A DNA stretch of 64,000 bases from a virus: IMG/VR virus record IMGVR_UViG_3300037483_001334; one strand, written 5' to 3'. Below, piece after piece: positions 22,064 through 27,162 of the stretch. The translations under genes were made by a program, and so were the position numbers. The stretch's first letter is position 1; each line of letters begins with the position of its first letter. A model generated the notes under the pieces. The model was not told the origin of the DNA and ran no database searches. It saw only the letters and a list, made by a program, of their open reading frames with translations.

Positions 22064-23143
22064 ATGTCTTCGGAGACCCTCGACCCGGCCGTTGCCGAGG
22101 CTGTCCTGCGTGCGTGGGACGGCCGGAAGGTCACGCTGGCGAGCGGCAAGACGATTGTCCAGGCCTGGCTCGGCGTCCGGCATCCGCGCGACGCGTGGGG
22201 CAACTTCATCGTGAAGGAAGGCCAGATCCGCTGGCACTTCGGCAAGCAGACGGTGAAGCAGCAGGAGAAGAGCTTCGGCGAGTGGCGAGACCGCAAGTCT
22301 CTTGGGCTCATCGACGCCGCAAACGTGCTCCTCACGAAGGCGGCGCGTACGCTCGGCCGTGAGGCGGAGCTGGCGAAGCTGCTCGGCCAGCGCGCCGCGC
22401 GCGGCGAGCAGAAGGAGAAGCGCACGAGCCGAGCGTCTCAGAAACGCCTGGAAGAGCAGGCGCAGGTCTGGGCCACGAAGCTCGTGTCGCAGCGCGATCC
22501 CGAGGCATACGTCAGGACGCTGACCATCGCGGAGAAGTCGGAAGCGCGTGACACATTTCTCGCGGCCGCTCGCGAGACGTATCAGCAGTGCCTGAAGCAG
22601 CTAGAAGCGGGCGGGTCGTACTCCGATGCCGAGATCGTCAGCACAGAAGACCCGCCGTTCGCTGCGTTTTTCGACAAGCGCTGCGTCTACGAGTGGAACG
22701 AGGACGTGCAGGGTGTTCCCTACACGTTCTTCGTCAAGCAGAAGGAGGTCGATCTCTGCGAGGTGCACGTTGGCAGGCCAACGGAGAGCGGAATGACCGG
22801 CCGCATCGATCCGATGACGCACATGGAGTCCTGGGCAGGCCCGACGGTGGGCGCGAAGGGCGACGGCTACATCAGCGGGCTCGTGCAGCGGAAGATCGGT
22901 CAGGCGCCGACCGGCGTTCTGTTCTTCATCTCGGCGCACGAGAAGAAGAAAGGCTCCGGAACCCGGATGCTCGACGCGTGGTGCTCGTTGATGAGCGGCT
23001 GGGGCGTCGACAGGTGGATCGCACAGGCGGTCGGCGAAGAGGGCGAGGCGTTCATCACGGCTCGCGTGCGCGCGGGCCGGCTCGTGCTGCATGGGCGCCG
23101 AGGCCATGACCTGGTGCTCAGCTGCGTGGGAGATCCGGCATGA
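22064..23143 (+). CDS. hypothetical protein, possible C-terminal GNAT-like fold
   Basis: ORF 359 aa; HEKKKGSGTRMLD resembles acetyl-CoA-binding motif A. Confidence 0.35.
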   Translation: MSSETLDPAVAEAVLRAWDGRKVTLASGKTIVQAWLGVRHPRDAWGNFIVKEGQIRWHFGKQTVKQQEKSFGEWRDRKSLGLIDAANVLLTKAARTLGREAELAKLLGQRAARGEQKEKRTSRASQKRLEEQAQVWATKLVSQRDPEAYVRTLTIAEKSEARDTFLAAARETYQQCLKQLEAGGSYSDAEIVSTEDPPFAAFFDKRCVYEWNEDVQGVPYTFFVKQKEVDLCEVHVGRPTESGMTGRIDPMTHMESWAGPTVGAKGDGYISGLVQRKIGQAPTGVLFFISAHEKKKGSGTRMLDAWCSLMSGWGVDRWIAQAVGEEGEAFITARVRAGRLVLHGRRGHDLVLSCVGDPA

Positions 23144-23901
23144 AGCGCACGTCGCGTCAGAAGCGTTACCCGCTGTGCCGCACACAAGGCGCGCACAACC
23201 GTCACGAAGGACGGCCGTTCACGTGTCGCGCCTGCGGAAAGAAGGCGTGCTGGAGCTGCGTGCTGCATTTCTGGCCCGAGCGAGCCCTGCCGCGCTCGGA
23301 TGGTACCGGTCTTGGTGCGGCGAAGCGGGCGATCGACATGGCGGAGGCAGACGACATGCTGCTTGGCTGCTGCTCGCGCGCGTGTCGAGCGAAGCTGCCG
23401 AAGTCGTATGCAGCAGACTTTCGCCTGGGTGTGACAAAGAATCGTCGCACCTCACGCAGTCCAAAGCGGTCGTCTCGGTCGTCTCATCGCGGTCCTCGTG
23501 GGCTGCGCCGGAACTCTGCGTTGCGGTCCAGACCAACGACGCATGATGCGATGATGCGGCACCTCGACTGGATCGACCCAGACGCCATCGGCGGCCATTC
23601 CTGGCATCTGCCTGGCGAGGACATGGCGTGGAGCTTCGAGCGGTGGAAGGTGAAAGATCTCCCAAGCGCTCCGCATCGCACGGGCGCCAAGGTCCGGAAG
23701 TACGTCGCCGCGATCGATGCCGGCTCGGAGCCGCCGGCCATCGTGCTCGCTGAGGGCAAGCCAGAGTACGACAGCTTCACGGGTGAGCTACTGCGTCGTC
23801 CGCCGATGGAAGTCTGGGATGGAGCGCATCGCATCGCGGCAGCGCGCGAGGCTGGTCTCGATGAGATCGACGCGTACGTCGGTCGGCACAAGGAATCGTG
23901 A
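23140..23901 (+). CDS. ParB-like nuclease-domain (ParBc/sulfiredoxin fold) protein with Arg-rich leader (MKRTSRQKR)
   Basis: C-terminal DGAHRIAAAREAGLDEIDAYVG. Confidence 0.5.
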   Translation: MKRTSRQKRYPLCRTQGAHNRHEGRPFTCRACGKKACWSCVLHFWPERALPRSDGTGLGAAKRAIDMAEADDMLLGCCSRACRAKLPKSYAADFRLGVTKNRRTSRSPKRSSRSSHRGPRGLRRNSALRSRPTTHDAMMRHLDWIDPDAIGGHSWHLPGEDMAWSFERWKVKDLPSAPHRTGAKVRKYVAAIDAGSEPPAIVLAEGKPEYDSFTGELLRRPPMEVWDGAHRIAAAREAGLDEIDAYVGRHKES

Positions 23902-26819: not shown

Positions 26820-26820
26820 A

Positions 26821-27162
26821 ATGGCCAAGAGAACGAGCCGCCGGAACTCGAAGAAAAAACACGCCGCATCGTCGACGACTCTCACCCAGCGCGACCTGAC
26901 CGCGCTTTTCGAAGGCAGCGCGATCAGCGGGCAAAAGCTGCTAGCGTTCGCGTACGAGTACGATGTCCACGGGCTGTCTGTTGCGGGTCTCGCGCTGCTG
27001 GAGAGCGTCAGGAGCATCAGCGACAAGAGCGTTCTCTACGTCTCGCCAGCCGACGCCACCGACGCCAACACGAAGCTCGTGGCTCGCGTCTACCAGCAGA
27101 TCCGAGACAGCGTGTCCGGCGCGGTCCTGCGGGAGCATCTGAGGCATCCGTTCTTCCGCTGA
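26821..27162 (+). CDS. small protein with Arg-rich leader (MAKRTSRRNSKKK)
   Basis: ATG 2 nt after the upstream stop. Confidence 0.35.
   Translation: MAKRTSRRNSKKKHAASSTTLTQRDLTALFEGSAISGQKLLAFAYEYDVHGLSVAGLALLESVRSISDKSVLYVSPADATDANTKLVARVYQQIRDSVSGAVLREHLRHPFFR

Follow-up and report, generated by a model that had tools for sequence, protein, structure and literature searches.

A recurrent basic tag on a predicted GHKL ATPase–zincin protein and other effector-type proteins of one phage clade

Polyvalent proteins, whose travel with DNA has been either predicted or demonstrated, form a network of shuffled domains whose hubs include MPTase, ART, ParB-like and GNAT domains; among the network members, P1 DdrB, the N4 virion RNA polymerase and ArdC are packaged or transferred along with the invading DNA (PMC5512222). 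The terms GHKL, HSP90 and histidine kinase have no occurrence in that work, nor does it mention a GHKL ATPase as a fusion partner. The internal proteins of phage T4 are diverse anti-defence proteins that have only a capsid-targeting sequence (CTS) in common (PMC3012670). Here, we analyse a 64,000-nucleotide (nt) stretch of viral DNA (IMG/VR record IMGVR_UViG_3300037483_001334; hereafter the window), in which three neighbouring genes encode proteins of 253, 971 and 113 amino acids (aa) that each open with the basic sequence M(A)KRTSR, and compare this tag and the proteins that carry it with the described systems.

The reading that we favour, with a probability of about one half, is that these are separate effector genes whose products are routed by the tag to a common destination, most likely the DNA-filled capsid, and that the 971-aa protein acts as a clamp-protease gated by ATP. 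Of all the elements, the tag is the most interesting and the one understood least; the known kinds that stand nearby are polyvalent-type effectors and CTS-like tagging.

The KRTSR tag and its distribution

The 55 proteins of the window contain the motif [KR]R[TS]S[KR] 13 times; 2000 within-protein shuffles gave 0.12 on average and never more than 3. The motif lies inside the first 25 residues of six window proteins, where 0.01 would be expected. These counts bear out the original prediction for this DNA, which had noticed an Arg-rich leader common to all three proteins. The copies differ in their synonymous codons, with Ser written as AGT, AGC, TCG and TCC, and because both Ser codon families are used, selection acts on the tag peptide. 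A repeat at the DNA level was ruled out by the codon differences between copies, a Tat signal because no hydrophobic region follows the tag, and a wrong-frame GC artefact because third-position GC is high and orthologues keep the tags.

At N-termini the tag takes the form M-x-KRTSR...RRNP[D/E], and at C-termini the form ...N-R-KRTSRKPKRTSRRPKRTSRSR directly before the stop codon; it also stands between domains. An Asn boundary, R-N-[P/S/A], ends 30 of 35 N-terminal tags, and in the model of the 971-aa protein the tag (residues 1–27) is predicted to be disordered. More than 10 unrelated proteins, mostly of effector type, carry it at N-termini, at C-termini or in inter-domain linkers, so the tag is not simply an N-terminal leader. 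It is found on orthologues at loci L001, L003, L005, L006, L010–12 and L030 and at none of the distant loci, and in clades free of the tag the neighbouring genes are essentially without tags too. When IMG/VR was scanned at the DNA level with a degenerate pattern for KRTSR-xx-KRTSR, 12 stretches were returned, with coding tags only in this clade and out-of-frame repeats in the rest. The tag is restricted to this phage clade, and a literature search on arginine-rich N-terminal tags in jumbo phages and on the string KRTSR found nothing relevant. Gene callers often clip the tags (P0064, P0015, P0016), so annotations under-report them: P0015 and P0016 are annotated from MFIESI with MSKRTSRTPRRTSRSPRRNPEG... 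in frame upstream (L003 2247–2333; L006 8123–8200), and the JGI call begins the ParB-like gene of the 253-aa open reading frame (ORF) at an internal ATG (P0064, 116 aa; window 23551–23901).

The tagged cargo comprises two HicB-like proteins, nucleotidyltransferases, pentapeptide-repeat and DUF5661 proteins, a membrane protein, a polyvalent protein and an 803-aa protein. The HicB-like, nucleotidyltransferase and pentapeptide-repeat members are plausibly early counter-defence factors. Small HicB/UPF0150-like proteins with an N-terminal tag are encoded at 3287–3553 (+; MKRTSRNSRRRASRQ...) and 21750–22004 (−; MRRTSRNTRTSQ...) of the window and at 8081–8362 (−; MKRNSRAPKRTSRRQ...) of L001, and no HicA-like toxin was seen beside the tagged HicB-like genes. 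A 719-aa protein at L005 consists of GNAT, ParB-like and two ART-PolyVal domains followed by a C-terminal tag. In the 803-aa protein (window 258–2669), the N-terminal half belongs to phrog_2319, is kept in Vibrio and Tunturiibacter jumbo phages and is annotated 'RecT-like' in Tunturi_5; two KRTSRP-repeat linkers lead from it to an additional C-terminal domain. In 41 kb examined of a cultured Tunturiibacter jumbo phage, which has the RecT-like gene, there is no KRTSR motif.

In the favoured reading, the tag would be a clade-specific, disordered, basic and portable address label made of [KR]R[TS]S[KR] repeats and usually ending in R-N-[P/S/A]. Most likely it would bind phage DNA or a component of the capsid interior, such that the effectors are packaged and then ejected with the genome. 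Like the T4 CTS, the tag is a short peptide common to unrelated, fast-evolving proteins of anti-defence type in one lineage (PMC3012670). The CTS itself is N-terminal, is not arginine-rich and is cut off by the prohead protease, whereas the KRTSR tag is strongly basic, is repeated and also occurs at C-termini and between domains; the resemblance is one of logic, and the packaging role of the KRTSR tag a putative one. Should the tag prove to be an address label, every tagged ORF of these phages could be taken as a candidate for a delivered effector or counter-defence protein without recourse to homology, and foreign proteins could be loaded by means of the tag, a portable handle like the T4 CTS.

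A more far-reaching proposal, which we put forward only tentatively, is that KRTSR...R-N-[P/S/A] constitutes a previously undescribed, position-independent 'address code' of one huge-phage clade that is read by a dedicated receptor. That receptor would be either a component of the scaffold or the capsid interior or a phage compartment rich in nucleic acid, giving more than 10 effector families one destination, and the cargo would span the GHKL-protease, the ParB-like nuclease, ART polyvalent proteins, HicB-like proteins, nucleotidyltransferases and pentapeptide DNA mimics. Gaining the tag would then be enough to recruit a protein as new cargo.

Its position independence (N-terminal, C-terminal and linker) and its disorder in the model would also suit an intracellular role, in which the tag is a disordered arginine-rich motif that binds nucleic acid or another polyanion and tethers proteins to DNA, to RNA or to a replication or condensate-like compartment. 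The RecT-like protein carries the tag, other tagged proteins are DNA-related (ParB-like, MutL/MORC-like, pentapeptide DNA mimics), and the composition resembles that of arginine-rich RNA- or DNA-binding peptides such as the Rev and lambda N motifs, including the conserved Asn. Nevertheless, we regard this explanation as doubtful: much of the cargo is of effector type (ART, HicB-like, nucleotidyltransferase) and would not need tethering, and the strict clade restriction together with the conserved R-N-[P/S/A] boundary suggests a specific receptor rather than generic charge.

Internal tag copies fall exactly between domains in the 253-aa ORF and in DUF5661 proteins, and follow the zincin domain in the relatives P0019, P0022, P0025 and P0029 of the 971-aa protein. 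Such copies would be expected if polyvalent proteins had been split and the basic segments were their linkers or propeptides, open to cleavage by a protease, with the terminal tags as half-linkers and with a head-maturation protease or the 971-aa zincin cutting at R-N-[P/S/A] or at dibasic sites. A C-terminal tag is followed by an N-terminal tag in adjacent genes at L005 (3546/3486) and L006 (12508/12583), the genes are coupled by overlaps or gaps of −4 to +2 nt, and polyvalent-protein zincins have been proposed as autoprocessing enzymes (PMC5512222). We consider this account unlikely as a rival, since most tagged genes of the window have no C-terminally tagged gene before them; it is, moreover, compatible with packaging and does not exclude it, and the nucleic-acid-binding and cleavable-linker alternatives are themselves not mutually exclusive. 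At L005 (~1400–3560, −), the 719-aa protein ends in ...ITKNRRTSKRTSRRRR and the next gene, starting at 3486 (−), opens with MKRTSRRPRRNP; here, and in the L006 pair as well, a stop and a start seem to have divided what was a single basic linker. In the ATPase clade nearest the window, the basic tag is followed by a separate short motif, NPK[I/L]V[G/S] (23955–23975 in the window), which appears again near the C-terminal tag of DUF5661 proteins (L003 1590, L006 7468) and after the ParB-like domain of P0065 (residues 282–290).

The predicted ATPase and zincin modules of the 971-aa protein

A search of 5.8 billion clusters found at least 60 relatives of the 971-aa protein, all metagenomic and none with a functional name. 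Scanning IMG/VR gave 20 loci of the family on viral contigs of up to 494 kb, while 185,579 prokaryotic species (one genome each) yielded a single match, on the 2.4-kb contig L039, and from this imbalance the family is essentially phage-only. No match was found by tblastn of the 971-aa protein against 50,697 GenBank phages. Family alignments were built from 28 members (A1) and 58 members (A2), down to 33% identity. The original prediction had begun the protein at a GTG (23898), giving 973 aa; the best start is the ATG at 23904, from which the 971 aa are identical to the database protein P0001.

All three ORFs and the motifs EVAQNSRDA, DNGTGM and HEVTH that had been read from the DNA are present as described. 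Motif I of the 971-aa protein is WWREVAQNSRDA (EVAQNSRDA at residues 130–138, nt 24291–24317), motif II is DNGTGM (residues 170–175, nt 24411–24428) and motif III is GGFGDAKE. The blocks WWRE-x2-QN-x-RDA, D-N-G-x-G-M and GGFGDAK, which correspond to Bergerat motifs I–III, are invariant in both alignments, as are residues E130, N134, D137, D170, G172, G174 and G198–K204; a G-T after strand 4 and the Arg of FTxKRD (FTKKRD in the 971-aa protein) are conserved as well. Pfam recovers the proposed HATPase assignment in relatives, with HATPase_c_3 in 20 of the 28 members (best E 8.6e-8) and HATPase_c in 11, whereas the 971-aa protein itself stays below the HATPase_c_3 cut-off (17.8 against 25 bits, E 0.0036). 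A profile search matches MutL and MORC2 across motifs I and II.

Structure prediction agrees with this assignment. The AlphaFold (AF2) model of the 971-aa protein has a mean predicted local distance difference test score (pLDDT) of 84.4, and Foldseek aligns its ATPase and transducer at probability 1.0 over some 350–400 columns (E 3e-9 to 1e-5) with TRAP1/Hsp90 (E 3e-9), MORC2/3/4, MutL LN40, GyrB43/ParE and TopoVI-B. Taken together, the invariant motifs, the HATPase_c_3 and HATPase_c matches in relatives and the predicted fold strongly support the GHKL call of the original prediction. With the GHKL ATPases that carry a transducer (MutL, MORC, Hsp90/HtpG, GyrB) the 971-aa protein shares Bergerat motifs I–III, the basic residue of the second domain and the fold. 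It differs from them in an additional N-terminal alpha/beta domain and basic tag, in having a zincin downstream in place of endonuclease, CW or client-binding domains, and in the confinement of its family to phages; sequence similarity to the characterised members is marginal.

RIIA is a T4 GHKL-domain protein that protects against prophage-encoded abortive infection. In the viral structure library BFVD, the top named matches of the 971-aa protein are RIIA and 'HSP90-family' phage proteins, with RIIA of many phages at E 1e-8 to 1e-6, and both are phage-encoded GHKL-transducer modules. That the 971-aa protein is a divergent RIIA-type protein nevertheless seems to us most improbable. The similarity is confined to the generic GHKL and transducer module and is no better than that to Hsp90 or MORC; no sequence-level relationship is apparent, none of the 28 members matches an RIIA PHROG (the sole PHROG match among them being phrog_6203, whose function is unassigned there), the C-terminal architecture is a different one and no RIIB-like partner was seen nearby. 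An HExxH domain is not known from RIIA.

The HExxH segment that the original prediction had described as zinc-peptidase-like is well supported as a conserved domain of predicted zincin fold. HE-x-TH-x2-G-x3-H (residues 634–645) is invariant or nearly so throughout the family; HEVTH occupies residues 634–638 (nt 25803–25817), and A1 shows no variation at H634, E635 or H638, while in A2 these positions are conserved to at least 90%. In the model, HExxH lies on a helix (622–639) that follows strands 563–615, and a second model, of residues 501–971, reaches a pLDDT of 90.3. The domain resembles known zincins, its best structural match being Wss1. H645 is at least 90% conserved and absent in P0054, and no conserved Glu was identified. 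None of the 28 members matched a curated Pfam peptidase family, and a profile of the domain found no match among PDB sequences. The last ~280 residues vary across family members.

Among described zincins, the MPTase domains of polyvalent proteins (Iyer et al. 2017, PMC5512222), WLM/Wss1 and SprT share the HExxH helix after a small beta-sheet, and the MPTase domains also share a phage effector context and the typical fusion partners ART-PolyVal and ParB-like. The relative P0018 has an ART-PolyVal domain N-terminal to its GHKL and zincin modules. In contrast to these families, the 971-aa zincin has no Pfam match to MPTase, WLM or SprT, and its HExxHxxGxxxH motif probably supplies a His as third ligand where a Glu is described for MPTase. 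The members of the GHKL-zincin family, at least 60 and all from phages, are uncharacterised; with this family, the proteins of phage–host conflict would gain an architecture in which a protease is gated by ATP.

The composite 253-aa protein and the gene island

The 253-aa ORF is a composite. Behind its N-terminal tag lies a Cys-rich module that is probably zinc-binding; it shares 81% identity with the N-terminal portion of P0062, a protein of another phage contig in which it is fused to NUDIX, and its IBR_1 match is weak (E 0.074). A second, internal tag (VTKNRRTSRSPKRSSRSS...RRNS) stands immediately before the C-terminal domain, where the GTG at its beginning is a possible separate translation start, and is the counterpart of the N-terminal tag (MKRTSRRPKRRSKRSSRRN...) of the stand-alone protein P0061, which has 148 aa and consists of a tag and a ParB-like domain alone. 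Residues 137–253 are 56–58% identical to P0061, and exhaustive phmmer searches gave P0061, P0065, P0068–71 and P0073 as homologues of this domain; P0065 adds a C-terminal HEFGH, and P0068 joins NUDIX and GNAT to it.

In the alignment of these domains (A4), Y52, G59, P63, D91, G92, H94, R95 and A98 are invariant (D-G-x-H-R-x2-A). With hhalign, the domain aligns with the ParB-like segment of the L005 polyvalent protein (E 2e-7, probability 94%), with the N-terminal ParB domain of B. subtilis Spo0J (reference sequence entered by hand; E 3e-5, probability 73%) and with sulfiredoxin (Srx; reference sequence likewise entered by hand; E 0.025). All three registers are as expected, with the DG-HR motif placed on GERRFRAA of Spo0J and on GGCHRYAA of sulfiredoxin. 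Pfam ParBc (PF02195) and ddrB-ParB gave no match (E <= 0.1 for the ORF, E <= 10 for eight domain homologues), a ParB profile found no ParB among PDB sequences, and against GenBank phages the only match was one of 25 residues in Bacillus phage G. The ParB-like nature that had been proposed for this protein is therefore borne out by the DG-HR motif and the hhalign fit to the ParB/Srx fold and not by Pfam ParBc: the domain is likely ParB/Srx-like, with moderate support, rather than a demonstrated ParBc member, and it probably acts as an NTPase or an NTP-dependent nuclease like those of phage polyvalent proteins. With the ParB/sulfiredoxin superfamily, and the DdrB-like ParB domains of polyvalent proteins in particular, it shares a PP-strand plus DG-HR-AA-G core in Spo0J/sulfiredoxin register, homologues fused to NUDIX, GNAT, ART and HExxH, and a location beside late or structural-type genes; it differs in lacking a ParBc or ddrB-ParB Pfam match, a ParA partner and a helix-turn-helix, and in the Cys-rich module and internal basic tag ahead of it.

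The 253-, 971- and 113-aa ORFs are real, tightly packed genes. Third-position GC is 0.73, 0.85 and 0.80 respectively, which supports a tightly packed block on the + strand, and no terminator-like sites were found on that strand between the block genes (Table 1). ATGA coupling, originally described for the three genes, holds only at the junction of the 359- and 253-aa genes; the 253- and 971-aa genes are joined by TGA, 2 nt and ATG (a GTGA overlap if the GTG start were used), and the 971- and 113-aa genes by TGA, 1 nt and the ATG at 26821. Searches of PHROGs, PADLOC and NCBIfam with the three proteins gave nothing meaningful. The 113-aa protein has no relative besides itself among the 5.8 billion clusters; it is an ORFan, and its coding status rests on third-position GC, spacing and tag.

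Tight same-strand spacing without an intervening terminator, together with a ParB-like gene that again adjoins the ATPase gene in L036, is what one would expect if the three genes made up a single dedicated system for defence or anti-defence whose parts, a ParB-like nuclease, a GHKL ATPase-protease and a small partner protein, work jointly. Comparison of relatives makes this very unlikely. In L001, the closest relative (ATPase 77% identical), the ATPase gene adjoins neither a ParB-like nor a small-protein gene: an unrelated 118-aa gene lies upstream and a second nucleotidyltransferase, ending in KRTSRPRKRRSR, downstream. On P0016 contigs it is flanked by DUF5661 and pentapeptide-repeat genes. 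In L036 the order is reversed, with the ParB-like gene immediately downstream of the ATPase gene (4-nt overlap) and an NfeD/SPFH pair next, as in the window; the adjacency of the two genes is thereby repeated. The small protein has no homologue, and PADLOC has no meaningful match. Because the neighbours differ between L001, the P0016 contigs and L036, the surroundings of the ATPase gene behave like a variable island whose anchors are the conserved DnaJ, DUF192 and NfeD/SPFH genes. In our reading the 253-, 971- and 113-aa genes are separate effector genes, and a fixed three-gene system is not supported.

For separate effectors sharing a destination, the following mechanism can be sketched. In its ATPase part the 971-aa protein is similar to MutL, MORC and Hsp90, which are dimerising clamps driven by ATP; ATP binding and hydrolysis may close or reposition the clamp and thereby gate the protease, which would process itself and co-delivered effectors or else cut a host target. 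The 253-aa protein would be a zinc-module adaptor joined to a ParB/Srx-like domain, and the 113-aa protein orphan cargo. We infer the enzymatic activities, the gating, the packaging and the co-ejection; co-delivery with the DNA is plausible. Several effector domains per polypeptide, as polyvalent proteins have them, occur in the window architectures GHKL + zincin and Zn-module + ParB-like, and both the set of domains (zincin, ParB-like, ART, GNAT, NUDIX) and the way in which they are shuffled agree with the polyvalent repertoire (PMC5512222).

Several observations weigh against this reading. The tag occurs in some clades of the 971-aa family and in none of the members of others, and because members without any tag exist, the core function of the ATPase family does not need it. 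As an inter-domain linker in the 803-aa RecT-like protein, and ahead of a transmembrane helix in another protein, the tag marks proteins that are not obviously virion cargo. The Pfam models MPTase-PolyVal, ddrB-ParB and ParBc find no match, and H645 as third zinc ligand is only guessed.

Table 1. Genes and features of the packed block (window coordinates)
Feature	Position (nt)	Strand	Remarks
359-aa gene	22064–23143	+	No terminal tag; internal KEKRTSRASQKR; upstream gene of same block
253-aa composite ORF	23140–23901	+	Starts as ATGA overlap with 359-aa gene (23140–23143)
N-terminal tag MKRTSRQKR of 253-aa ORF	23140–23166	+	L037 homologue opens MGRGRQKRYSLC
Cys-rich module, residues 10–97	23167–23430	+	C-x15-C-x2-C-x4-C-x2-C ... 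CC-x3-C
Internal tag/linker VTKNRRTSRSPKRSSRSSHRGPRGLRRNSALRSRPTTHD, residues 98–136	23431–23547	+	In-frame GTG at its start
ParB/Srx-like domain (likely), residues 137–253	23548–23901	+	...GSEPPAIVLAE...VWDGAHRIAAAREAGLDEIDAYVG
971-aa gene	23904–26819	+	ATG 2 nt past preceding stop; AAGGAA upstream
N-terminal tag MKRTSRPAKRTSRRPNRNPK of 971-aa protein	23904–23963	+	pLDDT ~40, residues 1–27
Predicted GHKL (Bergerat-fold) ATPase + transducer, ~residues 105–400	24216–25103	+	Invariant motifs, Pfam, Foldseek
Predicted zincin-like metallopeptidase domain, ~residues 535–692	25506–25979	+	HEVTHMQGYGRH at residues 634–645, nt 25803–25838
C-terminal helical + alpha/beta domains	25980–26819	+	Variable among members; no informative fold match
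113-aa gene	26821–27162	+	ATG 1 nt past preceding stop
N-terminal tag MAKRTSRRNSKKK of 113-aa protein	26821–26859	+	First residues of ORFan
205-aa nucleotidyltransferase (DUF2204/AbiEii-like)	27212–27829	+	Basic C-terminal tail RRTRSSKPTGRRIRRS

The gene of the 205-aa nucleotidyltransferase, which has an orthologue in L001, probably belongs to the block of the 359-, 253-, 971- and 113-aa genes. The 359-aa gene has an orthologue, also of 359 aa, at the equivalent position in L001; Pfam, NCBIfam and PDB sequence searches with its product gave no match, and a KKKGSGTRML motif in the C-terminal part is one that we take to be GNAT-like.

Phage setting and neighbouring genes

The window, whose counterpart is a 66,678-bp JGI metagenome contig (the one of P0001), has ~64% GC and 30 tRNA genes at 34854–49833, which cover most amino acids and include four tRNA-Arg and two tRNA-Lys; such an array is typical of huge phages. 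Many small genes lie on one strand, a tail-fibre-like gene (16925–18805) stands just 5' of the flagged region, and the closest relative lies on a 297,749-bp IMG/VR contig (IMGVR_UViG_3300033233_000001). On these grounds the window looks like a piece of an uncultured, high-GC huge tailed phage, in which the flagged region is a portion of a variable accessory ('effector') island. A weak hint at the host, or a binning artefact, comes from the contig L039 (JBEIUO010000658.1), which was binned with a metagenome-assembled genome of Phycisphaeraceae (Planctomycetota) and contains a DUF5661 C-terminal tag and the beginning of an ATPase gene.

Downstream of the island lies a pair of genes for an NfeD/YqiJ-like membrane protein and an SPFH/Band-7 (flotillin-like) protein (27925–30318), which is kept in L036 at 1810–4505. 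An RlaP-like nucleotidyltransferase (31332–32276; phrog_388, E 2e-63) and a DUF192 protein (20892–21272, −) are syntenic anchors common to the window and L001. Inside the tRNA array sits a Ro60/TROVE plus vWA protein (47133–48941; Pfam E 4.5e-59 and 2.1e-45), and the 64-nt segment directly 3' of its gene (48949–49012) has an odd Rfam match to a nematode sRNA (40.3 bits) and might be a Y-RNA-like partner. A 435-aa protein encoded at 54955–56262 (−) has at its start another kind of basic repeat, MTTTKRRWKTTTTKRRWK, with a Cys-rich segment behind it.

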